From positions 11,619 to 75,618 of the forward strand of contig CAMVDV010000009.1 of assembly GCA_947166305.1 (NCBI GenBank): a stretch of 64,000 nucleotides of DNA, in the 5' to 3' direction. The notes under the pieces were generated by a model. The model searched no databases. It worked only from the letters and a program-made list of their open reading frames with translations, and had not been told where the DNA came from. Shown piece by piece: positions 2,859-54,254 of this stretch (positions are counted from its first letter, which is position 1; each line of letters begins with the position of its first letter). The position numbers were made by a program, and so were the translations under genes. The DNA comes from an uncultured Prevotellaceae bacterium. Its GTDB lineage: Bacteria; Bacteroidota; Bacteroidia; Bacteroidales; Bacteroidaceae.

Positions 2859-2976
2859 GACCCCCCATCCCCCTTTAGGGGGAGGAAGGACCCTCTCTAA
2901 CTCCCCCCTTAAAGGGAGAGGACTCTGCGGCGGGAACTCCCCCTAAAAGGGGGGCGGGGGTCTGTAGTCGGGGGTC
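2859..2976. repeat. GC-rich multi-hairpin element, intergenic copy (about 1.3 units)
   Basis: Bounded by GACCCC...GGGGTC. Inner hairpins are CCCCCTTTAGGGGG, CTCCCCCCTTAAAGGGAGAG and CTCCCCCTAAAAGGGGGG. Confidence 0.9.
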
Positions 2977-3010: not shown

Positions 3011-4642
3011 ATGAGATTAAAGGCGACGGCCATCGTGCTGGCTTTCCTGACGACAGCAGGAGCATCAGCAGACATTGACAAAGCATTAGAAACCTTCGAC
3101 GAGCAGCCCGATGTGGCCACAGCCACTGGCTTCTTCGACGAACTCCTGAAGGAAGAATTCATCGACGAACAAGTTCGTTTCCCCATAGGCACACCCCCCG
3201 ACTCGCTGCAGCAGCAAGTGTGGTACTGGGCAGCCGAATGGTTCTACGACAAACAGCAGTATGAGAAGGCCGAAGCCTACGCCCTGAAAGCCCTGCCGAA
3301 GTACCATCCGTCCAATCCCGAGAAGGCCGACTGCCTCAACACCCTTGGCTGCATCTACGTCCGCCTCAGCGATTTCAAGCAGGCGGCAAGCTATGCCAGG
3401 CAAAGCGTGGAGATAGAAATGCAAGGAGGCAACCACGACCGCATATCCTCGAGCCTCAACACCCTGGCCGGCATTTACATGGCAGGATATCAGGCTAAAG
3501 AGGCAGAAGACATCATCCTCCAAGCCCTCGCACATGCAGAGCAAGCCGACAATCCGGGCCGTAAGGCTATCATCCTGGGCATGGCCTCAGAGATTTATCA
3601 CACGCTGGGTAACGACGAGAAGGCACTCTCCTACGCTGAGCAGGCCATCGAGCTGGAGAAACAACTGAACCGCCCCCAAAAGCTCCTGATACGCCTTTCG
3701 CAGAAAGGGTCGGCACTGCTCGGCCTTCATCGCTACGAGGAGGCAGAAGCCATCTACCGCCAGATAGCTCCACAGCTCAAGCAGATGGGCGACTATCATT
3801 CCTACGCTATCGCCCTCAACCACCTCGGCATGTCCCTTCTCTGCCAAGAACGGCAGCAGCAGGCCATACCTTATTACAGGGAAGCCGCCGACCTCTTCTC
3901 GCGCATGGGCGACCTCTACAACGAAATCCATTCGCACCGAGGACTCTACGAAAGCTACTGGGAACTGAATCCCGACTCGGCGAAGATAGAACTCGACCGC
4001 TTCGACTTGCTCAAGGACTCCCTCTACACGCACTCCACCGCCGAGGCTCTGTCGCGCTACAACGCCGAATTTAGCAACGACGTGTTGCAGCAGGAGAACA
4101 AGGAAGTGAGGCAAGCGCATCGCCGCACCATCATCCTCGGCACAGTCCTCTTGCTGCTGATAGCAGTCGGTGCGTGGCTTGCCATTCTCTACAGCCGTCG
4201 TCGCTGGCAGAGGCAGATGCAGGAACTGATAAAGGAAGTGGAAAAGACCCTCTCTAACTCTTCCTTAAAGAGAGAGGACTCAGCGAAGGAACTCCCCCTA
4301 AAGGGGGTCGGGGGGTCTGAAGAGTCTTTCCTCATGCGCGTCATCGAAGCCGTCAACGAAGCGATGCCTCAGGGCAACTTCGGCGTAGAGCAGATTGCTG
4401 CCGAGCTTGGCATGAGCGTGCAGACATTCCGTCGCCGTCTCTTTGACGCCGCAGGCGAGTCCCCGAAGTCCTTCATCCAAGCCATTCAGATGGAGCGAGC
4501 CGTAAAACTCCTTTCCGAAAAGCCCGACCTTTCCATCTCGCAGGTGGCAAATCTCTGCGGTTTCGACGAGGCAAGTTCCTTCGGACACACCTTCCGACGC
4601 ATCTACGGCTGTTCGCCTTCCGAATACAAAAAAACGCGATGA
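3011..4642 (+). CDS. Membrane-anchored TPR-repeat sensor with C-terminal AraC-type HTH
   Basis: Signal-like N-terminus, TPR-like repeats, TM helix TIILGTVLLLLIAVGAWLAILY, then an AraC HTH (SVQTFRRRLF..., ISQVANLCGFDEASSFGHTFRRIYGCSPSEY). Confidence 0.85.
   Translation: MRLKATAIVLAFLTTAGASADIDKALETFDEQPDVATATGFFDELLKEEFIDEQVRFPIGTPPDSLQQQVWYWAAEWFYDKQQYEKAEAYALKALPKYHPSNPEKADCLNTLGCIYVRLSDFKQAASYARQSVEIEMQGGNHDRISSSLNTLAGIYMAGYQAKEAEDIILQALAHAEQADNPGRKAIILGMASEIYHTLGNDEKALSYAEQAIELEKQLNRPQKLLIRLSQKGSALLGLHRYEEAEAIYRQIAPQLKQMGDYHSYAIALNHLGMSLLCQERQQQAIPYYREAADLFSRMGDLYNEIHSHRGLYESYWELNPDSAKIELDRFDLLKDSLYTHSTAEALSRYNAEFSNDVLQQENKEVRQAHRRTIILGTVLLLLIAVGAWLAILYSRRRWQRQMQELIKEVEKTLSNSSLKREDSAKELPLKGVGGSEESFLMRVIEAVNEAMPQGNFGVEQIAAELGMSVQTFRRRLFDAAGESPKSFIQAIQMERAVKLLSEKPDLSISQVANLCGFDEASSFGHTFRRIYGCSPSEYKKTR
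4246..4317. repeat. Multi-hairpin element copy inside the TPR/AraC CDS (72 bp, in frame)
   Basis: Reads gaccctctctaactcttccttaaagagagaggactcagcgaaggaactccccctaaagggggtcggggggtc and encodes TLSNSSLKREDSAKELPLKGVGGS. Confidence 0.85.
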
Positions 4643-5038: not shown

Positions 5039-8000
5039 ATGAAGACAAACCTAACATTTGCGAGAATCACAATGGCCCTGGCCATTGCATTGTTCCCGTT
5101 CTTGAAGGCCAATGCCTGGGATTGGGAGTGGACCGACACGTGGGGCGAAGCCGTTGCCTGGTGCGAAGAATGCGGAAACGAGTACATTATCTACGCCGAC
5201 AACTCTGCCGAGGCCGAGTCCGCTGCCGAAGACCTCTTCTGCAGCGACTGCGGCTGCTGCTCGGAAGATGTCAACATGGACTGCTATCGCGAGCACCATT
5301 GCCAGTTCTGCGATGGATGCATCGACAATGGAGAGTACCACGTAGGCATCTACAATCTGTTTGACGAGTACATACACTACGATTGTGCCATCGAACTCAT
5401 CGAATCCGGCGACGTCGATGCCTGCAGCTATTGCCACGAACTCTTCGGCGAAGGCGCCGTAGAGTGTGACTGCGGTGTGGGCGACAAGCACTGTACGGAC
5501 TGCTCCGAATCGAAGTGCGAGAAGTGCGGCAAGTGCTTGCTCATAGCCGGTGACGAGACCGATGCCGCATCGGGCGACGCCTGCATCGACCATGGCATTT
5601 GTGGCGAGTGCATGCCCGATGCCTCTGCCGATGACCAGACGCACTGTCGTATATGCTTCAACTGCGACGAGGACATCTGCGATGAGTGCGGCATGTGCGA
5701 GAGCTGTGCCGTATACGAGGAGCACTGCCCCGAATGCGGCTACTGCTTTGGCGACGAGGTGCAATGGTGCGCCGACGATGGGGAGCACTGCGTCAACTGT
5801 TGTAAAGACAACGGATGGTTATGCCCGGCTTGCGAAAGATGCGTGGACGGCGCAGGCATCTACATTTGCGACGACTGCGGCATGTGCGAAGAGTGCTGCC
5901 TGAGCGAGTCTGAGGGAGAAGGCTGCATACATGGCATTTGCACCGCCTCCTCAGAGTTCTACGACCACCTCTGCCCCGAGTGCGGCGAGTGTCCTCAGGA
6001 CGAGGAATGCGACTACTGCGGTCTCTGCATCAACTGTCAGACTGGCTATCACTGCGAGCACGAGCTCTGTCCAGACGGCTCTGAATGGGACGACCACGTC
6101 TGCCCCGACTGCGGTGAGTGCTTCGACGACGGCGAACTATGCGAGTTCTGCGGCCTCTGCGAAAACTGCCGCGAGCACTGCGAGCACGACTTCTGTCCTG
6201 AGAACGACGATGACAGCGACCACTTCATCTGCAACCAGTGCGGCGACTGCTTCGAGGCCATAGATCGTTGCGACGAGTGTGAGCTCTGTCTCGTCTGCTG
6301 TGACGACAACACTCAGTCCATGGGCTGCGACCACGGCTTCTGCGTCGTGAGCGACGACTTCGAAGAGCATTGGTGCTATGAGGACGATCAGTGCCTTGAA
6401 CTCTGCGAGCACGATCCGGAATGCACCCATTCGAATGTCACCTTGGACTACGCCATCAACGGCAATGCCCACTGGCGTGTCTGCGAAGACTGCGGACTCA
6501 CCGTCGACAAGGCACAGCACACAGGCGGCGAGCCTGTCACGTTGACGTCACCCAACGCTGCCACGCACACCAATGGCACAGCTCAGGTGAACTGCATCGT
6601 CTGCAACTACAAGATGGGCATCGTCCCCATCCCCTACGTTGAAGCACCCGCCGACGGCAGTCCGTACATTATTATACAGCCTACCGACTACACAGGCAAG
6701 ACCAACACCGCAGCATGGAAGGAGGAAGAAGATGACCGCTACGCCACCTTCAAGGTGAAGGCAGGCGGCGAAGGACTCTCCTATCAGTGGTATTGTCGCT
6801 ACGGCACCGGCAGCGGCACTAAACTCAGCGACGACAGCTACACACTAGGCACGCAGACGCCGACGCTCAAGACGCTGGTTTATGGCGAAGACTGCGAAAG
6901 GCAGAACCGCAACATCTATTGTATAGTAAGCAACAGCAAGGGCAGCGTCACCTCCGACGCCGCCTACTTCAAGGCAGAACATGTCTTCGGGCGCTACACC
7001 AAGAAGGACAATGAAACGCACGAGAACCACTGCTTCGGCGAAGGATGCAGCGTCGTGAAAGCCACCTCCAAGCACCGCTTCACGGAGTGGACGCTTGTAC
7101 GTCCTGCCACATCCTCCGAGACAGGATTGCGCGAGCAGCAGTGCATGGACTGCGCTTACAAGAAGAGCGAGAGCATCCCGATGGTTGAGCCCGACCACGT
7201 CCACAGCTACGACATAGCGAAGTACAATATGTCGCAGCACTGGTTCGTCTGCGCCTGCGGCATTGCCGGCCCCGATGCTGCCGTCGACCATGTATTCGAT
7301 GAGAGCGAGGTGGTTACCCCGGCAACCGAGACAAAGAGGGGCGAGAACAGGATTATCTGCAGCGCCTGCGGCTTCTTCAAGACAGAGAAGACCGACAAGC
7401 TGCCGCACGTACATGACTGGTACACGTTCGGAGAAATAAGTATTGTCTTGCCAAACGGTCATTCGGGTCCCGACCCGAAGAAGGGCAGCTACGGACCGAA
7501 CTCGCACACCATCAAGTGCAAGGGCTGCAATGAGAAGAAGACCGACCGACACGTTTGGGGTATGTTTGAATGCATGAGGGATGCCAAGGTTCAAGGCAAC
7601 GACACCATCGCCGGAAGGATTGTGCGCTACTGTGATATATGTTCCTACAAGGAAGAAAAGTTCTATCCCCTTGGCTCATGGCCCATCATGATTGCAGGCG
7701 GCACAGCTTACAAGGGACTCACTAACAGAGCTGGTCAGGTGATAAAATGGATTCCTGCCGCTTATGCCAAGAAGGGCGACAAGATAGAAGTTGCTTACGA
7801 TGCGCTTGCTGCCAGGTCGCTCGGGGACAATCAGCCTCAGAAGTTCGTAGAGTGGGTGGACGGCGCAAGCTGGATCGGCGAGACGAACATTCCTTGGGAC
7901 AATGGTCGGAGTAGCATCGACCTGCCTCGCCTTACCTTCCGCCTGAGCCGTACTACTCGCCGATATGGCTTCACGATGCCCGACGGCCCGGCCACCATCT

Positions 8001-9631
8001 TTGCCGTCACCGAGGCATGCGACCACAGCGGCAGCACGAAGCAAACCGCTCGCGTGGAGCCTACTTGCAGCAGCCACGGCTACGAGCCCAGCACGCTCTG
8101 CGCTGACTGCGACGAGGTTCTTGAGGAAGGCGCACGCATTCCTGCACTTGGGCACGACCTGCCCAGCACGCCTATCGCAGGAACCGAAGTCGTGGAGTAC
8201 TGCACGACATGGGTTCAGGATTATAATCAGTATGGAAAGCCGAACACCGCTACGCACGGCTACACGGGCGACTTCCTCTGCAACCGTTGCGGCCAGACGG
8301 TTAAGGGCGAGCCGACGCCCCTCCGCCATGGGAAACACGACAAGAACAATCAATACATAAGGCCTGGATATATTTGGACTAGCTATCAGAAATGGGTGGA
8401 GGCGACGAATCCCCCCACCTGCACCAAGGCTGGATACGAGGATGATCTCTATTGCATCTACTGCAACAAGCTTGTTCAGAAGGGCGAGCGCGTAGAAGCC
8501 CACGGGCATGACTGGGAGTCATGGTACGTAGTGCGCGAGGCCACGACGAAGGTGAAGGGCATGGAGCAGCGCGTCTGCGCCTACGACTATTCGCACGTCG
8601 AGACACGCATCACTGACTACAGCGGTCCGGACTACACGCTGAAGCCCGAAAGGCAGAAGCTCCGCTTCGAATGGACCTACGGAGAGCCTGTTCCGTCGCA
8701 GACCATCACGTTCAAGTCCACTGGCCGCGACAGCATCGGTTCCATTGAGTATGCCGAAGAGCCCAACGGTTACCTCGACGTGACCGTGGACGGCATGACC
8801 ATCACCGCCAAGCCTAATATCGACAATGTAAAATGGGAACGTAGCGACATGGAATACGACGTAGTAGTGACAGACCTTCTCACACCGGCAAACGAGACCA
8901 TCGAAAGCTTCACTGTTCCCGAGATTAAAGCCACCTGCATCATCAAGAAGACGCCCGAGAAGTACTTGCTGACCGTGGAAGACGGCTTGGCCACGACCTT
9001 CACCATGAGCAGACCCGAGTGGACTTACAGCACGGACAGGAGCAACATGCTGAAGGTGCGCGGCGGTGAGTTCGTAGAGCTGGAGCCTGAGGACGAATGG
9101 AAGCATGACTTCCTGCGTTGGGAGGTGATAAAAGGCTCCGACGACATACAGGAGGATGTGCATGAATCCAGGACGAAGAATACACGCTTCGTCATGTCGC
9201 CTGCCGACGTCACCATCCGCGCCATCTACAGGAAGAACGCTCCGACCATGAAGTTCAAGCAGACGGAAGTGACGGCAAGCGTGGAAGAGCCCTTCAAGGA
9301 GCCTGCACTCATCACGATACCGGGCAAGCTGCCTGTCACCTACAGCAGCTCCGACGAGAGGGTTGTACGGGTGAATCCCAAGACTGGCACCGTATCCTTC
9401 ATGGGAGCCGGCACCGCCGTCATCACGGCGACCTCTGCCGAGACCAACCACTATGCTTCCTCGGCAACGTCCTACACGCTCATCGTGCCGCAGGACTTCA
9501 TCACAGGAATAAAGACCCTCTCCGGCTCTCCCTTAAAGGGAGAGGGCATGTTCAACACTGGCGGCCAGCGCGTCGGCGACAGTTACCGTGGCATCGTCGT
9601 GACGAAGAACAAGAAGGAACTGAAGAAGTGA
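5039..9631 (+). CDS. Secreted 1530-aa cysteine-rich repeat protein with a C-terminal Big_2-like Ig domain and a short T9SS-like tail
   Basis: Signal peptide MKTNLTFARITMALAIALFPFLKANA. About 80 Cys fall in residues 42-462 as CxxC modules, with further His/CxxC modules after that. A Big_2-like segment (VTYSSSDERVVRVNPKTGTVSFMGAGTAVITATS) precedes the tail MFNTGGQRVGDSYRGIVVTKNKKELKK. Confidence 0.85.
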   Translation: MKTNLTFARITMALAIALFPFLKANAWDWEWTDTWGEAVAWCEECGNEYIIYADNSAEAESAAEDLFCSDCGCCSEDVNMDCYREHHCQFCDGCIDNGEYHVGIYNLFDEYIHYDCAIELIESGDVDACSYCHELFGEGAVECDCGVGDKHCTDCSESKCEKCGKCLLIAGDETDAASGDACIDHGICGECMPDASADDQTHCRICFNCDEDICDECGMCESCAVYEEHCPECGYCFGDEVQWCADDGEHCVNCCKDNGWLCPACERCVDGAGIYICDDCGMCEECCLSESEGEGCIHGICTASSEFYDHLCPECGECPQDEECDYCGLCINCQTGYHCEHELCPDGSEWDDHVCPDCGECFDDGELCEFCGLCENCREHCEHDFCPENDDDSDHFICNQCGDCFEAIDRCDECELCLVCCDDNTQSMGCDHGFCVVSDDFEEHWCYEDDQCLELCEHDPECTHSNVTLDYAINGNAHWRVCEDCGLTVDKAQHTGGEPVTLTSPNAATHTNGTAQVNCIVCNYKMGIVPIPYVEAPADGSPYIIIQPTDYTGKTNTAAWKEEEDDRYATFKVKAGGEGLSYQWYCRYGTGSGTKLSDDSYTLGTQTPTLKTLVYGEDCERQNRNIYCIVSNSKGSVTSDAAYFKAEHVFGRYTKKDNETHENHCFGEGCSVVKATSKHRFTEWTLVRPATSSETGLREQQCMDCAYKKSESIPMVEPDHVHSYDIAKYNMSQHWFVCACGIAGPDAAVDHVFDESEVVTPATETKRGENRIICSACGFFKTEKTDKLPHVHDWYTFGEISIVLPNGHSGPDPKKGSYGPNSHTIKCKGCNEKKTDRHVWGMFECMRDAKVQGNDTIAGRIVRYCDICSYKEEKFYPLGSWPIMIAGGTAYKGLTNRAGQVIKWIPAAYAKKGDKIEVAYDALAARSLGDNQPQKFVEWVDGASWIGETNIPWDNGRSSIDLPRLTFRLSRTTRRYGFTMPDGPATIFAVTEACDHSGSTKQTARVEPTCSSHGYEPSTLCADCDEVLEEGARIPALGHDLPSTPIAGTEVVEYCTTWVQDYNQYGKPNTATHGYTGDFLCNRCGQTVKGEPTPLRHGKHDKNNQYIRPGYIWTSYQKWVEATNPPTCTKAGYEDDLYCIYCNKLVQKGERVEAHGHDWESWYVVREATTKVKGMEQRVCAYDYSHVETRITDYSGPDYTLKPERQKLRFEWTYGEPVPSQTITFKSTGRDSIGSIEYAEEPNGYLDVTVDGMTITAKPNIDNVKWERSDMEYDVVVTDLLTPANETIESFTVPEIKATCIIKKTPEKYLLTVEDGLATTFTMSRPEWTYSTDRSNMLKVRGGEFVELEPEDEWKHDFLRWEVIKGSDDIQEDVHESRTKNTRFVMSPADVTIRAIYRKNAPTMKFKQTEVTASVEEPFKEPALITIPGKLPVTYSSSDERVVRVNPKTGTVSFMGAGTAVITATSAETNHYASSATSYTLIVPQDFITGIKTLSGSPLKGEGMFNTGGQRVGDSYRGIVVTKNKKELKK
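9514..9546. repeat. Partial multi-hairpin element (first hairpin) inside the giant CDS tail
   Basis: Reads gaccctctccggctctcccttaaagggagaggg and encodes TLSGSPLKGEG in the same phase as the other coding copies. Confidence 0.75.
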
Positions 9632-9726
9632 CGCCAAGGAAAGTCCCATTCTCCATCACCCAAAGTGGTGGGGGAGGGGACTTCCGCACGAAGACCCCCT
9701 GACCTCCTTTAGGGGGAATTCAGAAC

Positions 9727-9805
9727 ACCGCACGCGGGGATTGGCATCGCCGCACGCGGAAATGACAAACGCCGCACGCGAGAATCGCAATCTCCGCGTG
9801 CGGCG
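9727..9805. repeat. 22-bp-period tandem array, CGCCGCACGCG family (~3.6 units)
   Basis: Reads accgcacgcggggattggcat/cgccgcacgcggaaatgacaaa/cgccgcacgcgagaatcgcaat/ctccgcgtgcggcg. The last unit is inverted. Confidence 0.9.
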
Positions 9806-9814
9806 TTTCTTTTT
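9770..9814 (+). terminator. Intrinsic terminator of the giant gene, formed by the last two array units
   Basis: CGCCGCACGCG-loop-CGCGTGCGGCG followed by TTTCTTTTT. Confidence 0.65.
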
Positions 9815-9857
9815 CACCTTTTCACTTTTTCACCTTTTAGAGAGGGTCTTTACCTCT

Positions 9858-12377
9858 CTACAGTCTTCCCGAGCGTGAGATGAGGGAGTGTAGGCGGTCG
9901 GTCAGTGTGTCGGCCGAGAGCAGGCGCGAGATGGGCAGGTGCATCCTGTAGCGCCAGTAGTTCTTGGGATTGGCTGGTACGTTGATACGCTCCTCTTCCG
10001 GATGCGGATTTCGCAGGTCTTTATCCACCGAAAGCCAGTCCTGCAGACTGATGAGGCAAAGCATTGAGGGACTGCCGAGGTGCTGTGCCACGACTTCCTC
10101 GCAAAGCTCTGGGGTGAGGTCGGCCGGGGCTTCGCCGTCGTGCCCAAGCACATTGTTGTAGAAAAGCTGTGAGCGACGGACGTTCTCTCTCCACCAGAGG
10201 CGCAGCGTCGGCATGTCGTGGGTGAAGATGGTGTCGACGCTCTGATAGGGATTCTCCTGCAACGAGGCGAATGGGACGCCGTAGGCTTTCGGCATAGCCT
10301 GTATCTCGAGGCTCAGGATGCCGAGCTTCTGCATGACGGGGCCGACGCAGGCCGGCACCATTCCCAAGTCCTCGCCGCACACCAGCATGTTCGTTGCGTC
10401 GATGAGGGCGGGCAGTTTCTTCATGGCCTCAGCAGCCCAGAAGTCGTTGTGGCGGCGGAAGAAGTAGTCTTCGTAGAGGCGGATGAAGGCATTCTGCTCG
10501 TAGCTTCCGAGAGCATTCCATGCGTCCCGGCCAATCACGCCGATGCGGGGGTGGAAGAGTCCTGGCTGACAGTGCGGCACGAACAGTTCGTCGCGGAAGG
10601 TCACGCCGTAGGAAGCGATTTCTTCCTTCGTGAGAGGCAAGGCAGGAGAGAACTGTCCGAGCAGTGCATCGGGGTTCCCCTTGGGAATCTGCCAAATGCG
10701 GAAGAAGCCCAGGATGTGGTCGATGCGATAAGCACCGAAGTACTGTGCCATGCCTTGCAGCCGTTTCCTCCACCACTGATAGCCGTCGGCTGCCATGCGT
10801 TCCCAGTTGTAAGTGGGGAAACCCCAGTTCTGTCCGGACGGGGAGAAATCGTCGGGGGGAGCACCAGCCGTCATGTTCATGTTGAAGAGATGCGGCTCGT
10901 GCCATGCCTCCACGCTCTGTTGGCTGATACCGATGGGCAAGTCGCCTTTCAGGAAAATGCGTAGGCGGCGGGCATGGTCGGCGGCTTCGGCAAGCTGGCT
11001 GTGCAGCAGATGTTGCACGAAAGCATAGTAGCCGACTTCATGTCTGTGCCTTTCGACGTAGGCATCCACCTCGTCGCTGTTATAGGCAGACAGTTCGGGC
11101 CACTCGCTGAAGCGTGCCGTGCCATAAGTGTCGCGCAGGTGGCAGAAGACTTGATAGGGTTTGAGCCAAGACCAAGACCCCCCAACTACAGACCCCCCAT
11201 CCCCCTTTAGGGGGAGTTCCGCCGCTGAGTCCTCTCCCTTTAAGGGAGAGTTAGAGAGGGTCTCCTCCTCATAGAGCAGATGCAGGTACTCCTCCTTCAT
11301 TTTGATGACCTCCACATAGTCGAGGGCAGGCAATGCGTTCAGCTTCTGCCAGCGCTTCTTGAACTTTTCGAGCATCTTGGCATCGCGAAGAGGCAGTCTG
11401 CGCAGGTCGATGTAGATGGGATGCAGGGCATGGACGCTGATGGCATTATAGGGATAGCTGTCGGTCGGCGTGCGATTCTGCGTGGTGTCATTGATGGGAA
11501 GGAGCTGCACGGCGTGCATTCCGGCACGGGCTGCCCAGTCGCACATCTCTTTCAGGTCGCCGAAATCGCCTACGCCTTGGCTGCCTTCCGACTTCAAAGA
11601 GAACAGAGGAACGACCAGTCCCGCTGCCTTCCAAGGCGATGACGACAGACGGACCTCGCCATCCATCATGCAGACGACGTGGTTCTGCTCTGGCACGACG
11701 GACGGACATTGTCGATTGTCGCCTTCTTCCCACCTTGCCGAATGCTTCTCTCCTGTCACAACATATTTATATTGGAAAGGCAGACGCAGGCCGTCGGCAC
11801 TGATGGAGAGCAGCCATTCCTGCTGACTCGACGGCGTCATGGGCAAGGCGCGACGCACATCCCAGGCTCCGAGCGAAGGCTGGTCGCCGACGAGGGCAAC
11901 CCTTTCGCCTGCAGAAAGATGGGGAGCCTGCACGCGGAAAAGGAACGTGCGGGGGAAAAGGGCCACTCCTGCCGCCTGTCTCACCTCCATTCCCGACGCA
12001 ATCTGATAGGCTGCCGTGTAGCGATAAGAGTCGTCGGGCCTGTCGCGCCAGTGGTCGTAGAGGAAATAGGTGCGGGCATCGTCGGCAGGGAAGAGCCTCG
12101 GCACGGCATCCCATTCGCGTCGAAGCACACGCATCTGTTCCGTTTCGCCCCACGCCGACTGGCCCTTCGATGGACTCGACGGCACGATATTGTAGGAATA
12201 TCTGAACTGTTCGCCGCGAGCACGGAGGATGCTGATGCCTTTCCACATGAGTCCATCCGACGTTTCCAAGGGGATGCGATGCCGGTAGGCCTTGCCATCC
12301 GCAGAAAGGAAGCAAAGTTCCACCTCAAGGCTCTCTCCCCAATTCGTTCTGTATTCAATCGAAAAATGTAAAGTCAT
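9858..12377 (-). CDS. malQ: 4-alpha-glucanotransferase (GH77 amylomaltase) with N-terminal CBM20-like starch-binding modules
   Basis: GH77-like body (GDLPIGIS, DDFSPSGQNWGFPTYNW, YRIDHILGFFRIW, CGEDLGMVP). The N-terminus looks like CBM20. I chose the start at MTLHFSIEY because a -7 box lies 28 nt upstream; the ORF-track TTG at 12407 is unlikely. Confidence 0.9.
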   Translation of the reverse strand: MTLHFSIEYRTNWGESLEVELCFLSADGKAYRHRIPLETSDGLMWKGISILRARGEQFRYSYNIVPSSPSKGQSAWGETEQMRVLRREWDAVPRLFPADDARTYFLYDHWRDRPDDSYRYTAAYQIASGMEVRQAAGVALFPRTFLFRVQAPHLSAGERVALVGDQPSLGAWDVRRALPMTPSSQQEWLLSISADGLRLPFQYKYVVTGEKHSARWEEGDNRQCPSVVPEQNHVVCMMDGEVRLSSSPWKAAGLVVPLFSLKSEGSQGVGDFGDLKEMCDWAARAGMHAVQLLPINDTTQNRTPTDSYPYNAISVHALHPIYIDLRRLPLRDAKMLEKFKKRWQKLNALPALDYVEVIKMKEEYLHLLYEEETLSNSPLKGEDSAAELPLKGDGGSVVGGSWSWLKPYQVFCHLRDTYGTARFSEWPELSAYNSDEVDAYVERHRHEVGYYAFVQHLLHSQLAEAADHARRLRIFLKGDLPIGISQQSVEAWHEPHLFNMNMTAGAPPDDFSPSGQNWGFPTYNWERMAADGYQWWRKRLQGMAQYFGAYRIDHILGFFRIWQIPKGNPDALLGQFSPALPLTKEEIASYGVTFRDELFVPHCQPGLFHPRIGVIGRDAWNALGSYEQNAFIRLYEDYFFRRHNDFWAAEAMKKLPALIDATNMLVCGEDLGMVPACVGPVMQKLGILSLEIQAMPKAYGVPFASLQENPYQSVDTIFTHDMPTLRLWWRENVRRSQLFYNNVLGHDGEAPADLTPELCEEVVAQHLGSPSMLCLISLQDWLSVDKDLRNPHPEEERINVPANPKNYWRYRMHLPISRLLSADTLTDRLHSLISRSGRL
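11176..11262. repeat. Multi-hairpin element copy inside malQ (87 bp, in frame)
   Basis: It is the reverse complement of the 2889-2976 copy, so it has the same orientation relative to its host gene. It encodes TLSNSPLKGEDSAAELPLKGDGGSVVGGS. Confidence 0.9.
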
Positions 12378-12404
12378 GGTTGCTTTTTCTAATAATTTCC
12401 ATAA

Positions 12405-12412
12405 CAAAATTA
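12405..12412 (-). promoter_or_regulatory. -7 box (TAATTTTG on minus strand) for malQ
   Basis: Plus strand reads caaaatta. Confidence 0.5.
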
Positions 12413-12714
12413 GGGATAATTAAAGAAAATGGCAAGAACTGAGGAAGAAAAATGCTAAAATGCTTGCATAATCCGTCAAGAATGCCTAAATTTGCATTAT
12501 CAAATAAGTCCGAGATGGTCTTGGAGCGTCAAGACATTGACATCATAAGGGCGTGCTGGTCAGATCGGGATACTCATCAATTTACACTTCATTACCGAGA
12601 AATGTTTCGTATGCTAATGGCGTGCCATCCCATTCGTGGTTAGGTGGATTACAAAGGCAGCGAACCCTCAAAACCTGTTTTTCGGAGTTTCATCACATCG
12701 CCAGTGCGCCCCTT

Positions 12715-13821
12715 TTATTTTCCCTTCAACACGTGTTCCACTTCTTCGTCGCTGTCGGTCAGGCAGAGGATGAGGTTTTTGTATGTACCGTCGTCGACGA
12801 GCCTCATGAGCAAGGGCCAGATGGGTATTTTCTCTGTCCAGAAGTGTGTGTCGAGGAATATCATTGGCGATGCATAGCCGAAGGTGAGGTAGTGGTTCTG
12901 CACTGCCTCCTGGAAGATTTCCTGCAGGGTTCCGGCGCTGCCGGGTGTGTAGATGATGCCACCCTTGGCGATGGTGAGGATGCCGTCCTCGCGGATGCTG
13001 TTGTCGAAGTACTTTGCGATGTGTGTGGCGAAAGGCGTGGATGGTTCATGTCCATAGAGCCAAGTGGGGACGCCGAGGCTTGTGTAGCCCAGATTGGGGT
13101 ACTTGTTGTGTACTTGCCAAGCGGTGGAGAGCCAGAGAGGGTGAGTGTAGAGCGGTGCAACGCGCAGCATGTCGAGCGCTTCCTGCAGTTCGTCCGAGCT
13201 TCTTCCGGCCATCCATGCGCCCAGATGTGTTGCCTCCATTGCCCCCGGGCCTCCGCCGGTGATCATGAGGAAGCCTGCCTCGGTGAGTCGTTTGCTGAGC
13301 TTTGCCACCATTTCATACGAGATGTCGCAGCGCGAGATGCTGTGGCCGCCCATCACTCCGACGAGCCTGTGTTCGTCGAAGTCCTCAAGGAAGTCGTTCA
13401 GACAGTCTGTGATGGAGTGGTCATGCAAAGCCCTTGCCAGTGTTTCCTTCACGTCGGTGGCGTGCTTTCCCTTCTTCAGGTAGTGTCGATAGACGCGTCC
13501 GTCGAAGCATTGTTCGTAGCTTTCCGGCTGGTCGGGACGGTAGCCTTCGTAGAGTTCTTCGGGCGAATAGAGGTGATTGGGAAAGTCGAATGTCTCGCCC
13601 ATGTTGGGGAGGAAGAGGCAATCCCTTGACCGTCGTTTGAGTCCCATCGGCAGTCGGCAGCTCAGGAAGAGGCATTCGCGATAGGTATGGGAGAGTGCCT
13701 GCTCGGGAAACTCCGTGAAGTCTGTGCTCTGGAAGGCAACGTGGCGGAGTTCCTCCTCGGGCTGTGCGAGCTGGCAGGACAGTTCCTGCTGGTTTCTTAT
13801 CTGTAGGTATTTGTCTTTCAT
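12715..13821 (-). CDS. LOG-family / PpnN-like nucleotide 5'-monophosphate nucleosidase family protein
   Basis: Motifs GGGPGAMEATHLGAW and TPGSAGTLQEIFQ (LOG PGGxGTxxE-like). Its start overlaps the smpB stop as TGATG. Confidence 0.75.
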   Translation of the reverse strand: MKDKYLQIRNQQELSCQLAQPEEELRHVAFQSTDFTEFPEQALSHTYRECLFLSCRLPMGLKRRSRDCLFLPNMGETFDFPNHLYSPEELYEGYRPDQPESYEQCFDGRVYRHYLKKGKHATDVKETLARALHDHSITDCLNDFLEDFDEHRLVGVMGGHSISRCDISYEMVAKLSKRLTEAGFLMITGGGPGAMEATHLGAWMAGRSSDELQEALDMLRVAPLYTHPLWLSTAWQVHNKYPNLGYTSLGVPTWLYGHEPSTPFATHIAKYFDNSIREDGILTIAKGGIIYTPGSAGTLQEIFQEAVQNHYLTFGYASPMIFLDTHFWTEKIPIWPLLMRLVDDGTYKNLILCLTDSDEEVEHVLKGK

Positions 13822-14300: not shown

Positions 14301-14417
14301 ATTTTTCTTAGTTAAGAATGAAGAGTTAAGAGTTAAGAAAGTGTGAAACGCACCGAGGCGCGTCCGTCTGCTGGTGCCGACAGCTCGGCGAGGTCAGCGA
14401 GGAAGTGTATCCTTCCC

Positions 14418-14946: not shown

Positions 14947-15067
14947 CGAATAAGAGATGGAAAAGCAAAGGAAAATCCTGTTTATTTTACTTTCCGCTGC
15001 CCTCGCAGAGGGCTTTCTGCTGTCTTTCGGCGGTGGATTCTTCGCCACGCCCCGTGCGACGTTCTTT

Positions 15068-15155
15068 GCATGGTCATGATGCTGCAATTGCAGGTTCATG
15101 ATGTTGCAATTGCACGGTCATGACCATGCAATCATAACCCTGCAGGGTTCTGTGA
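15068..15155. repeat. Tandem array, 4 x 22 bp (GCANGGTCATGANNNTGCAATT x3 plus ATAACCCTGCAGGGTTCTGTGA)
   Basis: Contiguous 22-bp units, 88 bp in total. Same family as 57081-57168. Confidence 0.9.
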
Positions 15156-15350: not shown

Positions 15351-15680
15351 ATGAATCCCGACAATTCGAAATCGCAGATGCGCAAGGGTATGCTCGAATA
15401 CTGCATCATGCTCTTGCTCCGACGGCAGCCTTGCTACGCCAACGACATCATCCAGAAGCTCCGCGAGGCCGAGATGATCGTGGTGGAGGGCACGCTCTAT
15501 CCGCTGCTGTCGCGCTTGAAACGCGACGGACTGCTCGGCTACGAGTGGCGGGAGAGCACGCAGGGACCGCCGAGGAAATACTACGTCCTGACTCCCGAAG
15601 GGCAGGATGCCCTCCAACAGCTCGATGCCGGATGGGAGGAAATCCAGCGCACGGTGGCCATCTTGAAAGTTAAGAATTAG
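15351..15680 (+). CDS. PadR family transcriptional regulator
   Basis: LEYCIMLLL...YANDIIQKL...GTLYPLLSRLKRDGLLGYEWRES...PRKYYVLTPEG. Confidence 0.9.
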   Translation: MNPDNSKSQMRKGMLEYCIMLLLRRQPCYANDIIQKLREAEMIVVEGTLYPLLSRLKRDGLLGYEWRESTQGPPRKYYVLTPEGQDALQQLDAGWEEIQRTVAILKVKN

Positions 15681-15752
15681 GAGTTAAGAGTTAAGAGTTG
15701 GAAGTTTTAGTTAAGAGTTAAGAATTAAGAGTTAAGAAAATATGAGTTAAGC
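15667..15752. repeat. Simple tract (GTTAAGAG)n overlapping the padR stop
   Basis: Reads aagttaagaattaggagttaagagttaagagttggaagttttagttaagagttaagaattaagagttaag... Confidence 0.9.
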
Positions 15753-24682: not shown

Positions 24683-24840
24683 GTTATATAATTAACGTAG
24701 GCGCGCGTCCTTTTATTGTATATATAGGGCTCTTTTTTTGTCTTTGGCATCAAAAGCGTCCGGCAGAGAGGAGAAAGGACACTTCGCGCGGGAACTCCAA
24801 GTTGCGAATAATCAAGGCACTATAGGGTCGTCTGTGAATC

Positions 24841-24980
24841 TCGTGTGGAGTTTGCGAACTTCTCGTGTGGAGTTTGCGAACTTCTCGTGTGGAGTTTGCG
24901 AACTTCTCACGTTTAGTTTGCGAACTAACCACGTTTAGTTTGTTAATTAACCACGTTTAGTTTACGAACTAACCACGTTG
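24841..24980. repeat. Tandem array, ~6.3 x 22 bp (TCGTGTGGAGTTTGCGAACTTC x3, then CACGTTTAGTTTGCGAACTAAC x3)
   Basis: Contiguous units in the divergent sprA/ruvA intergenic region. Same family as 43794-43873. Confidence 0.9.
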
Positions 24981-25005
24981 TCCGCCCCCAGAACCACCTC
25001 TCCTT

Positions 25006-33162: not shown

Positions 33163-33190
33163 AGAAAAGGTGAAAAAGTGAAAAGGAGAA
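33163..33190. repeat. Simple tract (GTGAAAAG type)
   Basis: Reads agaaaaggtgaaaaagtgaaaaggagaa. Confidence 0.8.
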
Positions 33191-33250
33191 CAATCAGAAA
33201 AGAGGGAGAAAGGATGGCGCGACGAAATGGCTCGTGTCCGTGGCGTAAGA

Positions 33251-33331
33251 TTTCCGCGTGCGGCGTTGGCAATCCCCGCGTGCGGCGTTGGCAATCCCCG
33301 CGTGCTGCGATGGCAATCCCCGCGTGCTGCG
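33251..33331. repeat. 22-bp-period tandem array, CGCCGCACGCG family (reverse orientation, ~3.7 units)
   Basis: Reads tttccgcgtgcggcgttggcaa/tccccgcgtgcggcgttggcaa/tccccgcgtgctgcgatggcaa/tccccgcgtgctgcg. Confidence 0.9.
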
Positions 33332-33354
33332 TTTTAATTCTTTTTCAGTCCCAT

Positions 33355-33412
33355 TTTTACTTTTCTTTTTCACTTTTTAACCATTTCACTTTTTCACTTT
33401 TTCACTTTTTTT
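33355..33412. repeat. Simple tract (CTTTTTCA type), inverted relative to 33163-33190
   Basis: Reads ttttacttttctttttcactttttaaccatttcactttttcactttttcactttttttt. Confidence 0.85.
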
Positions 33413-33414
33413 TG

Positions 33415-33422
33415 TATCTTTG
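33415..33422 (+). promoter_or_regulatory. -7 box TATCTTTG only 8 nt before the ATG of the ABC binding protein
   Basis: Matches TAnnTTTG. The spacing implies a leaderless or near-leaderless mRNA. Confidence 0.4.
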
Positions 33423-33429
33423 CACCGCC

Positions 33430-34590
33430 ATGCAAGTAAAAACACATATTCTGTGCCTCTTTTCGCTTCTGCTGACGGCCTGCGGCGGCGGCAGAACCGA
33501 AGTCCCCGCCGCGACGGGCGACACGCTCGCCATGCGTCATGCCAAGAACCTCATCATCGTGCAGTACGCCGATCATGCGGAAGTGACGCTCCGTAATCCA
33601 TGGGACACGACGGGCGTGTTGGCAAAATACTGCCTTAGCCCCCTCCCGACCTCCCCCTTGGGGGAGGAGACCCGACGCGGAAGCCTCTCCTCCTCGGGGG
33701 AGAGGTTTGGAGAGGGGGCTGGAGAAGGACAGCTTGTCAGCGTCCCTCTGCAGAATGTGGCCGTCTTTGGCAGCGTACACGGTGCCCTGCTCTATGAACT
33801 GGGAGTGGGCGATGCCGTGGGCGGCGTGTGCGACCTCGAATACTTCAACCTGCCGTTCTACAAGAAAGGCGTGGCCGAAGGGCGCATAGCCAACCTCGGC
33901 AACAGCATCCAGCCAAGCCTCGAGAACATCATCAACCTTGGTCCGGATGCCCTGATGCCAAGCCCTTTCGAGAACAGCGGCGGCCTGGGGCGCGTGGAGC
34001 GACTGGGCATCCCCATCATCTGGTGTGCCGACTATATGGAACACACGCCCCTCGGTCGCGCCGAATGGATGCGGTTCTACGGACGGCTCTTTGGCCGTGG
34101 ACAGGAAGCCGACAGCATCTTCAGCCTCGTGGAGCAGCGCTACGAAGCACTCTGCACTCTGGCTAAAGAGGCAAAGACAAGGCCTCGGCTGCTGCCCGAG
34201 ATGCCTTGGAGCGGACAATGGACGCTCCCCGGAGCCGGAAGCAGTTCGACAAAGTTATATACGGACGCCGGAGCCGACTATCTCTTCGCCCATCTCGCCG
34301 GAGCCGGTGGCATTCCGCTCAGCACGGAGAAGGTTGTGGACAAGGGCATCAGTGCCGACATCTGGCTTATCAAGCATCATGGGCCGCTCATCCGCAGCCA
34401 GATGACGGCGGACACCCCGCTGTTGGAGGGCATCAAGGCGCCCATCTGGTGGTGCGACACCTCGCGTTCGCTCCTCTACGAAGAGACTCCCTTCCATCCC
34501 GAAAGGCTCTTGGAGAACCTCATCGCCATCCTTCATCCCGAACTCGGCATCGAGCCGGAGTACAAATACTTTGAAGAATTAAAAAGGTGA
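33430..34590 (+). CDS. ABC transporter substrate-binding lipoprotein (BtuF/FecB-like, iron-siderophore/cobalamin type)
   Basis: Lipoprotein signal MQVKTHILCLFSLLLTAC at an internal Met of the 33004 ORF; the upstream part of that ORF is repeat DNA. It is followed by a FecCD permease. Confidence 0.8.
   Translation: MQVKTHILCLFSLLLTACGGGRTEVPAATGDTLAMRHAKNLIIVQYADHAEVTLRNPWDTTGVLAKYCLSPLPTSPLGEETRRGSLSSSGERFGEGAGEGQLVSVPLQNVAVFGSVHGALLYELGVGDAVGGVCDLEYFNLPFYKKGVAEGRIANLGNSIQPSLENIINLGPDALMPSPFENSGGLGRVERLGIPIIWCADYMEHTPLGRAEWMRFYGRLFGRGQEADSIFSLVEQRYEALCTLAKEAKTRPRLLPEMPWSGQWTLPGAGSSSTKLYTDAGADYLFAHLAGAGGIPLSTEKVVDKGISADIWLIKHHGPLIRSQMTADTPLLEGIKAPIWWCDTSRSLLYEETPFHPERLLENLIAILHPELGIEPEYKYFEELKR
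33637..33720. repeat. Nested-palindrome element variant inside the binding-protein CDS (84 bp, in frame)
   Basis: Outer repeat AGCCCCCTC...GAGGGGGCT with inner hairpins CCTCCCCCttgGGGGAGG and CCTCTCCtcctcggGGAGAGG. Encodes SPLPTSPLGEETRRGSLSSSGERFGEGA. Confidence 0.85.
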
Positions 34591-35691: not shown

Positions 35692-37284
35692 ATGAAGAAG
35701 CAAATCCTTTCCCTCCTTGTTGCAGCAATGAGCATGACCGCTGCTGCAGAAGTGAACTACCAAGTCGTTCCCCTGCCTCAGAAGATTGAAATCGAGCCGG
35801 GCGGCAAGTTCTTCACCCTCGTCCAGGGCTTGACCGTGGGCTATCCCGCCGATAATGCCTTGATGAAGCGCAACGCAGAGTTTGCAGAAGAGTACTTCGG
35901 CTTCCTCCCAAAAACAGCCGACAAGAAAGGTGCCGACGTGAGTCTTACACTCGGATTGAAGTCGGATAATCCCGATGCCTATGTCATAACAGTCGGGAAG
36001 AAAGGCATCAACATCCAAGGCGCAAGCGAAAGCGGCGTATTCTACGGCCTTCAGACGCTCCGCAAAAGTATCATGAACGAACAAGGCGAGGTTCGACTGC
36101 CCTTCGCAACCGTCAGTGCGGAGCCTCGATTCGCTTATCGCGGCACGGAACTCGACTGCGCCCGACACTTCTTCCCTGTCAGTTTCGTCAAGAAGTTCAT
36201 CGACATCCTTGCCCTCCACGGCATCAATCGCTTCCATTGGCACTTGACGGACGACCAAGGCTGGCGCTTCGAGGTGAAAGCCCTTCCCGAACTGGCTGAG
36301 AAGGCAAGCGTTCGTCCCCACACCATCATCGGCAGGAATGTTGGTCTCGCCGACCCTTCCAATGCCATCTTCGATGATACTCCCGAAACAGGATACTACA
36401 CGCAGCAGGAACTCCGCGACGTAGTGCGCTATGCTGCCGAACGCTTCATCACCATTGTCCCCGAGATTGACCTGCCAGGCCACATGGTGGCGGCGCTAAG
36501 CGTCTATCCCGAGCTCGGCTGCACAGGCGGTCCGTATGAAGTTTGGTGCACATGGGGCATTGCCGACGACGTGCTCTGTGCAGGCAACCCCAAGACGTTG
36601 GAGTTTCTCAAGACCGTCTATGGAGAACTTTGCGACGTCTTTCCCGGCGAACTGATTCACATCGGAGGCGACGAAAGCCCGCGTGTTCGGTGGAAGTCTT
36701 GCCCCAAGTGTCAGGCAAAGATGAAGGAGCTTGGGCTCGAGAAAGAGGCTCAGCTGCAGACCTATATAAATAAGGAGATGGAATCCTTCCTCCAGAAACG
36801 CGGACGACAGATTATTGGATGGGACGAGACGCTGGAGGGCGGACTGAGCGAGAAGGCTGCCGTGATGAGTTGGCGTGGCTATGAAGGCGGCAAGGCTGCG
36901 GCCAAGCTGCATCATCATGTGGTCATGACGCCCACCTCACATTGCTATATCGACTATTATCAGCTCAAGAATACCAATGCCCAGCCCCTTGCCATCGGTG
37001 GATACCTGCCCTTGAGCAAAGTTTACAGCATGGAGCCAGTCCCAGCAGACTTGACCGACGAGGAAGCCCAGTACATCATGGGGGCGCAATGCAATCTCTG
37101 GACGGAATATGTCGTCAGCCCTGACCACGCCGAGTACATGCTCCTGCCGCGTCTGGCAGCCATGAGTGAGGTGCAGTGGCTGCAGCCCGAGGCAAAGAAC
37201 TACGAGCAGTTCCTCGGCAGACTGGAAGGCTTGAAGGGATGCTACAAGAAGCTTGGCTACAAGTATTGCACGGGAAACGAATAA
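35692..37284 (+). CDS. Beta-N-acetylhexosaminidase (GH20)
   Basis: Signal peptide; RGTELDCARHFF, HWHLTDDQGWR, HIGGDE. Confidence 0.9.
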   Translation: MKKQILSLLVAAMSMTAAAEVNYQVVPLPQKIEIEPGGKFFTLVQGLTVGYPADNALMKRNAEFAEEYFGFLPKTADKKGADVSLTLGLKSDNPDAYVITVGKKGINIQGASESGVFYGLQTLRKSIMNEQGEVRLPFATVSAEPRFAYRGTELDCARHFFPVSFVKKFIDILALHGINRFHWHLTDDQGWRFEVKALPELAEKASVRPHTIIGRNVGLADPSNAIFDDTPETGYYTQQELRDVVRYAAERFITIVPEIDLPGHMVAALSVYPELGCTGGPYEVWCTWGIADDVLCAGNPKTLEFLKTVYGELCDVFPGELIHIGGDESPRVRWKSCPKCQAKMKELGLEKEAQLQTYINKEMESFLQKRGRQIIGWDETLEGGLSEKAAVMSWRGYEGGKAAAKLHHHVVMTPTSHCYIDYYQLKNTNAQPLAIGGYLPLSKVYSMEPVPADLTDEEAQYIMGAQCNLWTEYVVSPDHAEYMLLPRLAAMSEVQWLQPEAKNYEQFLGRLEGLKGCYKKLGYKYCTGNE

Positions 37285-37340
37285 AAAGGTGAAAAGGTTA
37301 AAAAGTGAAAAGGTGAAAAAGTGAAGAGTGAAGAATTTGC
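37284..37340. repeat. Simple tract (GTGAAAAG / GTGAAGA type) spanning the GH20 stop and the ATPase GTG start
   Basis: Reads aaaaaggtgaaaaggttaaaaagtgaaaaggtgaaaaagtgaagagtgaagaatttgc. Confidence 0.9.
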
Positions 37341-38121
37341 TGCCGCCAGGGGGCAGAGTCCCTTCCCCTTCGAGGGAGGTCGGGAGGAGGCCGGTTCTGT
37401 TGAGCTACGCCATCTCACCGTTGGCTACAGCCAGAGAGCCGTTCTTTCCGACATCAACCAGACGCTCCGGCCTGGCCGAATGGTCAGTCTGCTCGGGTCG
37501 AATGGTGTGGGCAAGAGCACGATTCTGCGGACGCTGTCGGGCTTCCAGCCGCCCCTTTCGGGCAAAGTGATGCTCGACGGCCGCGACCTCTCTGCTCTTT
37601 CTCTCTCTGAACGCAGCAAGACTGTCTCCGTGGTGCTGACCGAGCGTGTGGAGGTGCCGTACATGCGGGTCGCAGACCTCGTCGGCATGGGCCGCTCGCC
37701 CTATACAGGCTTCTTCGGAACTCTGACGGAGGCGGACAGGGAAATCGTTCGGGAGGCCATCGATATGGTGGGAATTAGCAGCCTTGCCGAGCGAACGGTG
37801 GACACACTGAGCGACGGCGAGCGGCAGAAGGCTTTGCTTGCCAAAGCGCTGGCACAGCAGACGCCGGTCATCCTCCTTGACGAGCCGACGGCTTTCCTTG
37901 ACTTCCATGCCAAGCTGTCCACGATGCGACTGATGCAGAAACTTGCCCACGAGACGTGCAAAGCCATCCTGCTGAGCACGCACGACGTGGGGATGGCCCT
38001 GCGGCTGAGCGACGAACTGTGGGTGGTGCAAGACGGTGTCATACACGCCGGCACGGCCGATTCGCTGCGAGCTGACGGTACGCTCGATGCCTTTCTGAAG
38101 GGCGAAGACAAGTACGTCTGA
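37321..38121 (+). CDS. ABC transporter ATP-binding protein (FecE/BtuD-like)
   Basis: Walker A GSNGVGKST, signature LSDGERQK, Walker B ILLDEP. The only in-frame start upstream of Walker A is GTG at 37321, which gives a ~25-aa repeat-derived leader. Confidence 0.85.
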   Translation: MKSEEFAAARGQSPFPFEGGREEAGSVELRHLTVGYSQRAVLSDINQTLRPGRMVSLLGSNGVGKSTILRTLSGFQPPLSGKVMLDGRDLSALSLSERSKTVSVVLTERVEVPYMRVADLVGMGRSPYTGFFGTLTEADREIVREAIDMVGISSLAERTVDTLSDGERQKALLAKALAQQTPVILLDEPTAFLDFHAKLSTMRLMQKLAHETCKAILLSTHDVGMALRLSDELWVVQDGVIHAGTADSLRADGTLDAFLKGEDKYV

Positions 38122-38147: not shown

Positions 38148-38250
38148 TCCGCTCGCGACGCCTCTGATTTTCGCCTGCGACGTTTGCCATCGCCGCACGC
38201 GAAGATTCCCATCGTCGCACGCGAAAATCGGCATCGCCGCACGCGACGTT
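38148..38250. repeat. 22-bp-period tandem array, CGCCGCACGCG family
   Basis: Reads ...cgcctgcgacgtttgccat/cgccgcacgcgaagattcccat/cgtcgcacgcgaaaatcggcat/cgccgcacgcgacgttttc. Confidence 0.85.
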
Positions 38251-38352
38251 TTCAGCCGCCGTCAGCGATGCTCTCCGATGCCGATGGCAACGGCCTTTCC
38301 GAAGGAAGCGAGAAAAGCGCCCGACGCAGCCGCCGAGCCAGCTTCCTGGCCA

Positions 38353-54043: not shown

Positions 54044-54045
54044 AT

Positions 54046-54250: not shown

Positions 54251-54254
54251 GTTA

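Follow-up and report, generated by a model that had tools for sequence, protein, structure and literature searches.

Palindromic repeats that lie in frame within housekeeping genes are best known from Rickettsia, where they are often attributed to weak selection in small intracellular populations. The Rickettsia palindromic elements (RPEs) occupy protein genes (Ogata et al. 2000, as summarised in PMC10969869), and dimers of repetitive extragenic palindromes (REPs) that lie inside genes and encode 20–30 residues have been described from several phyla (Di Nocera et al. 2013, PMC3733652), alongside REPINs (Bertels and Rainey 2011, PMC3116915). Here we describe an 87-bp palindromic repeat within the gene for a 4-alpha-glucanotransferase of glycoside hydrolase family 77 (GH77), located in 64,000 nucleotides of DNA from an uncultured Prevotellaceae bacterium (contig CAMVDV010000009.1 of assembly GCA_947166305.1, positions 11,619 to 75,618 of the forward strand), hereafter the window. 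Like RPEs, it belongs to a family of short palindromic repeats that stand in frame in many unrelated housekeeping genes and encode a conserved peptide, at sites compatible with the host fold and with no identified mobilising enzyme (PMC10969869). We consider it very probable that the 87 bp represent a copy of a small non-autonomous repeat that is now GH77 coding sequence at a permissive, hypervariable loop. In the literature searched, no family of this kind is described from Prevotella or Bacteroidota. The 188-bp repeat of Prevotella intermedia/nigrescens (PMC4755523) was considered as the same element and rejected, being intergenic and different.

The host gene is intact. The open reading frame (ORF) 9858..12407(-) runs without interruption, as the preliminary description of this DNA had stated for a malQ-like ORF, and encodes a CBM20 starch-binding domain followed by the GH77 domain (Pfam PF02446, 2e-136). 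Its listed start is a TTG at 12407, while comparison with orthologs places the real start at the ATG at 12377 (MTLHF...), giving a protein of 839 residues. The catalytic motifs RIDH, GEDLG and HD are invariant across 65 sequences, and an AlphaFold2 model built from 65 sequences (mean predicted local distance difference test score, pLDDT, 87.5; predicted template modelling score 0.88) has a normal GH77 fold, with template modelling scores of 0.83–0.85 to solved amylomaltase structures. A relative of ~97% identity from an independent assembly, locus L049, carries the same element at the same GH77 position, which therefore is not an assembly artefact. Between the window and this relative, the element codons, with 11.3 nonsynonymous against 1.7 synonymous changes, have a ratio of nonsynonymous to synonymous polymorphism (pN/pS) of 2.4, and the rest of the gene has one of 0.07. 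Strong purifying selection thus acts on the enzyme, and the protein sequence of the inserted loop is free of constraint. The claim that an enzyme carries a predicted peptide derived from a hairpin element without disruption of its frame is upheld by these data. A divergently oriented Rfam Bacteroidales-1 (6S-like) RNA at 12549-12717 (+), scoring 128.6 bits, lies directly upstream of the GH77 gene.

The element encodes the 29-codon peptide TLSNSPLKGEDSAAELPLKGDGGSVVGGS between LLYEEE and WSWLKPYQVFCHLRD, in the position first reported. The coordinates given for it, 11176-11262, are the exact limits of the element as DNA; its codons occupy 11175-11261(-), a trivial difference of one base. The GH77 copy is nearly identical to the reverse complement of an intergenic sequence at 2889-2976 (79/86 positions, 92%), again as reported, and also to a sequence at 4246-4322 (70/77, 91%). 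The 36-nt left unit, allowing at most 3 mismatches, has 2 matches in the window against 0.00 expected from 100 shuffles, and the 14-nt hairpin core has 6 against 0.16, and chance is therefore excluded. That the segment is a complete copy of the repeat holds only in part: it is a repeat copy, but a hybrid that joins a left unit of subfamily 1 to a right unit of subfamily 2 and ends in a 15-nt duplicated tail (Table 1). The GH77 copies of the window and of L049 differ at 12/87 positions (13.8%) against 3.0% in the flanks (P = 1e-5), with the differences clustered in the tail. There the two copies show a substitution cluster at equal length, SVVGGSWSW against SWSWEGWSW in the relative, which looks like one templated multi-nucleotide event and not like independent point mutations. 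An ordinary lineage-specific loop, a pseudogene or a misassembly, with only incidental likeness to the intergenic repeat, would agree with the variation of this loop in length and sequence among orthologs. The explanation retains next to no probability and is refuted by the identity of 91–92% over 77–86 nt to two window copies, by the recurrence of the 36-nt unit in dozens of unrelated genes of related species, and by the intact, selectively constrained frame on which an independent assembly agrees.

Comparison with 81 orthologs indicates that the element is derived at this site. Most of them carry a conserved 19-residue segment, for example RESVSQKADYQSFMKDNAE, between ...LLYEEQ and WLQPY. 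The query lacks this segment and has 31 residues in its stead, so that in the alignment the event reads as a replacement, 31 residues for 19, and not as the clean indel that the preliminary description proposed to test for. A rough pattern classifier separates 29 of 82 sequences from the ancestral type at the site. Those among them that clearly derive from repeats carry SPSKGR..SLPIEGEVW, PPLKGE..PFKGDLEG, LPLWGRAERQ... and translated 8-nt repeats, and on a neighbour-joining tree these insert-bearing orthologs, which represent different repeat families, are scattered among sequences of ancestral type; the query and P0001 themselves adjoin the ancestral-type P0020 and P0078, and P0020 aligns to the query with only three gaps. 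An ancestral-type majority combined with scattered and different inserts shows that the GH77 element is derived and that the loop is a recurrent hot spot; the unusual segments of other orthologs are thus not a homologous ancestral feature, and the refuting condition named in the preliminary description, a homologous segment in distant genera, does not overturn the interpretation. The translated 8-nt-type repeats stand in frame in some orthologs, as in KNEERRVKNK...SSLFTLHSS of P0045. The protein has three or four other insert hot spots, and at one of them (model residues 67-80), where the query carries a further extra segment (Table 1), orthologs bear repeat peptides of the SPSKGR...EGEVW type. 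In the model, pLDDT falls below 50 only at residues 71-80 and 377-400, which are the two extra segments. The element bridges the modelled helices 354-375 and 405-418 and is predicted to form a disordered loop between them, in agreement with the surface loop proposed from its Gly/Ser/Pro-rich composition. The earlier observation is confirmed. Its interpretation is supported, subject to correction on three points: what took place is a replacement, the copy combines two unit types, and the gene is one of several decorated in this way.

The wider family was defined from a scan of one genome per species for the 17-mer TTAAAGGGAGAGGACTC, which returned 48 loci. About 31 of these are metagenome-assembled genomes (MAGs) of rumen Prevotellaceae or 'Bacteroidaceae' with several copies per genome; the others are single chance matches in unrelated phyla. 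Aligned copies give a consensus of ~78 nt, AGACCCTCTCTAAC-TCTCCCTTAAAGGGAGA-GGACTC-(12-nt spacer)-TCTCCCCTTTAAGGGGAGA-TTTAGAGGGGTCT, with imperfect terminal inverted repeats, (A)GACCCTCTCTAA and TTAGAGGGGTC(T), which pair as an outer stem enclosing two hairpins; in a 66-nt form the spacer is missing. In 23 copies, 91.5% of cells are paired in the proposed structure against 37–66% when the partners are slid, and the stems hold 23 double-sided changes where shuffles give 9.7 +/- 2.2. Scanning metagenomes for the right-hand unit of the window copy found 9 loci, enough to define a second, perfectly palindromic subfamily (GACCCCCCATCCCCCTTTAGGGGGAG...GGAACTCCCCCTAAAGGGGGATGGGGGGTC) and too few for a census. 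Units begin GACCC(T/C)C and each consists of a GACCC-type end and a 6–7-bp GC-rich hairpin. The building block of the family is a unit of 30–36 nt, which occurs in doublets with or without the 12-nt spacer, in hybrids and as singletons.

Each orientation of the consensus offers exactly one stop-free frame, TLSNSPLKGEDS..SPLRGDLEGS forward and DPSKSPLKGE..SSPFKGELERV in reverse, and the lengths in which the element occurs, 66, 78 and 87 nt, are all divisible by three. Copies that survive within genes therefore share a frame, and unrelated genes share a peptide. A profile search of the window and related loci yielded 57 distinct copies, 55 of them classifiable, where a copy counts as genic if the frame is open for at least 45 codons on both sides, so that a copy splitting a gene in a closed frame would score as non-genic. 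By this definition 46/55 copies (84%) are genic, compared with 74% of random 78-nt segments of the same loci, and the proportion is 18/23 (78%) among copies not selected by the search word. Genic copies are mostly in sense orientation (34 versus 12 antisense), which could reflect either a better-tolerated peptide or a strand bias of insertion. Hosts, essential genes among them, include LeuRS, YidC, ClpB, MetH (with two copies), RNase R, GcvT, dihydrolipoyl dehydrogenase (Lpd), an M16 peptidase, GH3 and a ketoacyl synthase, as well as a 2239-aa ORF with GH18 and alpha-2-macroglobulin domains (L006 622-7338, -) that holds five in-frame copies or fragments, all in sense orientation. Alignment to solved homologues places 26 element residues of LeuRS at the position of a 5-residue linker in the Thermus thermophilus enzyme, and shows element residues replacing ~9 residues of a variable loop in GcvT. 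At L041 2265-4445 (-), a 727-aa frame combines a GNAT acetyltransferase (174-302) with a DegT/DnrJ aminotransferase (377-722) and carries an antisense copy at residues 336-361; here the element, being free of stops, may have joined two adjacent genes into one.

A stable GC-rich hairpin structure inside a coding region (predicted RNA fold −47.7 kcal/mol, with a z-score of only −1.7, as shuffles of the same composition also fold well) might suggest a segment that is cut out of the mRNA or skipped by the ribosome, similar to the GC-rich 'byp' elements of Magnusiomyces mitochondria. This is scarcely credible given that all 46 of 46 genic copies lie in a stop-free frame with lengths that are multiples of three, which is needed only under read-through, and that the peptides are the same across hosts; nor was any copy seen to split a gene in a closed frame, though such a copy would score as non-genic. 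Read-through of the GH77 copy would place the predicted junction peptides LLYEEETLSNSPLK, GDGGSVVGGSWSWLK and GDGGSVVGGSWSWLKPYQVFCHLR in the product. Searched against a large protein collection, a 50-aa concatenated element peptide gave no match among 41 candidates sharing words, and a HMMER search of 1.84 billion representatives with the 33-aa segment of the window returned two unrelated repeat proteins only, the query being short and the 50% clustering hiding decorated members. Bacteroidetes O-glycosylation follows the motif D-(S/T)-(A/I/L/V/M/T). A role of the peptide as such a site was rejected; EDSAAE fits, but most other copies have DSK, DSG or DSS at this point, and the host appears to be cytoplasmic.

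Our data support a model where a repeat of two inverted units of ~30–36 nt, each with a GACCC-type end and a 6–7-bp GC-rich hairpin, would persist within genes only as copies that happen to lie in a stop-free frame. The ribosome would read through such a copy and add a disordered loop of ~30 residues, rich in Gly, Ser, Pro and Lys, to the helical subdomain of the GH77 enzyme, at a distance from the conserved catalytic motifs and without loss of function. Since the ancestral 19-residue loop is gone, the element would have arrived either by insertion followed by loss of neighbouring codons or by replacement of the loop with a short element-bearing recombination patch. We infer the translation and harmlessness of the segment, as well as the manner of its arrival.

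How such copies may arrive is best illustrated by a transglutaminase-like gene, in which a 25–26-residue element replaces an ancestral loop of equal length (WADxxTGxWHDVLFGSAQExTAPQG). The orthologs that bear it are polyphyletic, with identical peptide and boundaries. In the closest filled/unfilled pair, from one lineage (P0124/P0125, Table 1), the genes match at ~100% over ~500 nt to either side and are completely different over 75 nt, with extra single-nucleotide polymorphisms within ~20 nt of both junctions; the patch as a whole measures ~120 nt. Over the whole gene they are 94.5% identical, owing to a few other diverged patches. One allele carries the element and the other an ancestral-type half-loop, followed by (CAATGTT)x3.5 and then an element-like end, GAGGGGGTCT. 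What separates the two is a short patch of recombination, in which element and non-element sequence are exchanged, and not a transposition into an empty site. In a second filled/unfilled pair, P0127/P0131, flanks of 60–90% identity are too diverged to show a patch.

These observations raise the possibility that the element is a driven allele passing from lineage to lineage, its patches being preferentially taken up or fixed by recombination in an uptake-signal or homing-like manner. Such drive would explain why the same copy stands at the same site in interleaved lineages, the ~120-nt patch with its junction polymorphisms bears a signature of co-conversion, and the family is not depleted from coding DNA. 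We nevertheless regard drive as highly unlikely. In comparisons of more distant species, the 20 nt next to the element show ~14% divergence, which leaves no co-converted tract, while ordinary recombination in a polymorphic population accounts for P0124/P0125, a pair that does not fix the direction of exchange. There is also no known nuclease or competence bias, and uptake signals are generally much shorter and arise by point mutation.

Several points weigh against a merely tolerated repeat insertion at the GH77 loop. No target-site duplication accompanies the family (25 full copies, direct repeats of 2–9 nt, boundary offsets of −3 to +3), and no transposase or RAYT was identified in the 64 kb or in the 8-kb relative loci, where no search for one was made; transposition is therefore not demonstrated. 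Comparison with L049 gave no presence/absence polymorphism, every window copy having its counterpart at the same site with no empty site, and there is no empty GH77 site among close relatives, the only close one (98% identity) being filled and the next standing at 71%. Low pLDDT predicts disorder and does not prove surface exposure.

A further objection is that strong conservation of copies at the DNA level in other species fits 'tolerated junk' poorly. Across five independent ortholog groups of the main subfamily, with the ascertainment 17-mer excluded, orthologous copies show 9 differences in 271 nt against 40 expected from the flanking coding DNA (P = 5e-10). No other 78-nt window of the transglutaminase-like gene is as conserved as the element (1.00 against a maximum of 0.90 in 742 windows), and identity declines exactly where the element ends. 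Each locus has its own spacer, and copies in a single MAG differ in it, which argues against intragenomic homogenisation, independent insertion and smoothing by the metagenome assembler; the last was rejected as a source of the excess because the conserved spacer differs from that of other copies in the same MAG.

Such conservation, together with compensatory changes that keep the hairpins, would be expected if the element were a functional nucleotide-level signal kept in genes for what it does, perhaps a structured motif in RNA or DNA or a site bound by a protein, with the peptide as a by-product. We consider this unlikely. The element is covered by no Rfam family and showed neither terminator-like nor promoter-like sites, and its fold z-score is modest; many copies are cut to one unit or partly deleted, and no function can be named. 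Both the GH77 copy and the intergenic copy of the window differ from L049 more than their flanks do (13.8% versus 3.0% and 6.0% versus 1.7%, respectively), the opposite of the conservation seen elsewhere. Whatever constrains the main subfamily therefore does not act on the hybrid GH77 copy, which appears to evolve without constraint.

For the family as a whole, a bolder proposal is that these palindromic elements are adapted to the coding sequences of free-living gut bacteria with large populations and are not passively tolerated junk, as they occupy loops at or above random frequency, remain near-invariant as DNA while flanking codons have diverged by at least 20%, and move as constant-length, loop-replacing patches of ~120 nt. 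We hold this as tentative and rather improbable. If true, it would imply a nucleotide-level function in dozens of essential genes, or recombination-based drive.

Further copies in the window are listed in Table 1. The same reading frame is used in three window genes, those encoding the GH77 enzyme, a TPR-TM-AraC regulator (TLSNSSLKREDSAKELPLKGVGGS; TM here denoting a membrane helix) and a 1530-aa ORF (KTLSGSPLKGEG). In orientation and frame the regulator copy stands to its gene as the GH77 copy does to its own, and it sits in the linker between the membrane helix and the helix-turn-helix (HTH) domain. This copy, the half copy in the 1530-aa ORF and the second relic in the GH77 gene were not cited in the preliminary description. 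A different palindromic family of the same architecture stands in frame within a lipoprotein gene (ATG at 33431). The 1530-aa ORF, 5039-9631 (+), has a very Cys-rich N-terminal half with many CxxC pairs, only a weak Big_2 match in Pfam, and an 18-nt in-frame indel at about 8230 relative to its L049 ortholog. Intergenic regions are dense with tandem 8-nt repeats (AAAAGGTT and GTGAAAAG types) and 22-nt hairpin arrays of several families.

Table 1. Positions of the GH77 element, its parts and associated repeats (window coordinates unless a locus is named).
Feature	Position	Strand	Description
GH77 host gene	9858..12377	-	CBM20 + GH77 4-alpha-glucanotransferase, 839 aa
Element in GH77 gene	11176..11262	-	Two-hairpin palindromic repeat, 87 bp; in-frame read TLSNSPLKGEDSAAELPLKGDGGSVVGGS
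Left unit	11227-11262	-	GACCCTCTCTAAC + hairpin TCTCCC-TTAAA-GGGAGA + GGACTC
Spacer	11221-11226	-	Between left and right units of the GH77 copy
Right unit	11191-11220	-	GGAAC + hairpin TCCCCC-TAAA-GGGGGA + TGGGGGGTC
Duplicated tail	11176-11190	-	TGTAGTTGGGGGGTC, 15 nt
Second extra segment in GH77 gene	12138..12179	-	SSPSKGQSAWGETE, clean 14-aa insertion versus minimal ortholog P0020
In-frame copy in TPR-TM-AraC/HTH regulator gene (3011-4642)	4246..4322	+	Reads TLSNSSLKREDSAKELPLKGVGGSEE
Intergenic composite copy between YceG gene and regulator gene	2860..2976	+	Subfamily-2 unit 2860-2886, then two-unit element 2889-2976
Single unit, in frame near C-terminus of 1530-aa ORF	9514..9547	+	KTLSGSPLKGEG
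Single subfamily-2-like unit, intergenic, downstream of 1530-aa ORF	9690..9722	+	GACCCCCTGACCTCCTTTAGGGGGAA
Different palindromic family, same architecture	33636..33720	+	Inverted ends GCCCCCTC/GAGGGGGC, two CCTCCC-type hairpins; reads SPLPTSPLGEETRRGSLSSSGERFGEGA
8-nt-repeat / hairpin-array intergenic regions	1142-1563, 9707-9838, 14308-14346, 15062-15134, 15666-15745, 24832-24994		
8-nt-repeat / hairpin-array intergenic regions (continued)	33165-33418, 37275-37358, 38172-38295, 54034-54288, 58930-58994		
Filled/unfilled pair P0124/P0125	L059 1526-4024 and L060 2501-4999		Same lineage, transglutaminase-like gene

The same habit in abundant rumen Prevotellaceae means that in-frame palindromic repeats are not confined to reduced genomes. 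By varying the length of otherwise conserved proteins and giving them odd low-complexity loops, such repeats bear on annotation, on alignment and on the prediction of structures for gut and rumen metagenomes, and they mark permissive loops that could take engineered insertions. The behaviour of the family is unusual in its genic majority, excess conservation and patch-wise exchange, and the latter two provide testable handles on whether such an element is junk, signal or driver.

Uptake sequences (USS/DUS) of Haemophilus and Neisseria measure 9–12 bp (~29 bp when extended), originate by point mutation and number thousands of copies. They are likewise over-represented, tolerated in certain frames within genes, often arranged as inverted pairs and spread by recombination and not by transposition, whereas the units described here are blocks of 30–36 nt. 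The element also resembles miniature transposable elements with inverted repeats (MITEs) such as Coxiella QMITE1 (PMC5896051) in being small and non-autonomous, with terminal inverted repeats and occasional in-frame ORF fusions. It differs from them in that no target-site duplication is detectable in the 25 full copies, and in that ~90% of bacterial MITEs are intergenic (bioRxiv 10.1101/2024.01.18.576219) compared with the ~84% genic fraction here.

By analogy, the closest counterparts are the RPEs and the intragenic REP dimers, and the element would seem to work like both while being a member of neither. To our knowledge its consensus resembles no RPE, the distinction from RPE-1 to RPE-10 being drawn without a sequence comparison. 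Several RPE features recur here, including a palindrome that folds into a long hairpin (outer stem and two hairpins, 91.5% paired), in-frame placement in many unrelated genes (46/55 copies in long ORFs) and, by prediction and alignment, probable loop or linker sites in GH77, LeuRS and GcvT. The differences are these: the element belongs to Bacteroidota and RPEs to Alphaproteobacteria, it measures 66–87 bp against ~100–150 bp, its hosts are free-living rumen bacteria and not obligate intracellular parasites, and it replaces loops where RPEs simply extend them; its genic fraction of ~84% also appears higher than the 'nearly half' given for R. conorii (PMC10969869). With REPs and REPINs it shares imperfect palindromes of ~30–36 nt that often form inverted pairs and also occur as singletons, the possibility of several unit types per genome, and intra-ORF dimers that encode 20–30 residues. 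REPs are, however, mostly extragenic, compared with 84% genic copies here against the random baseline of 74%, and they carry a GTAG or CGTC tag at one end of the unit (PMC3733652), whereas neither lies next to the stems here, a single GTAG occurring only in the duplicated tail of window copies. Given that Y1 HUH subclasses 2.4 and 2.6 exist in Bacteroidetes (PMC6006769), a REP-type mechanism is possible for an element that otherwise shares with RPEs the habit of lying in frame within the loops of housekeeping proteins.

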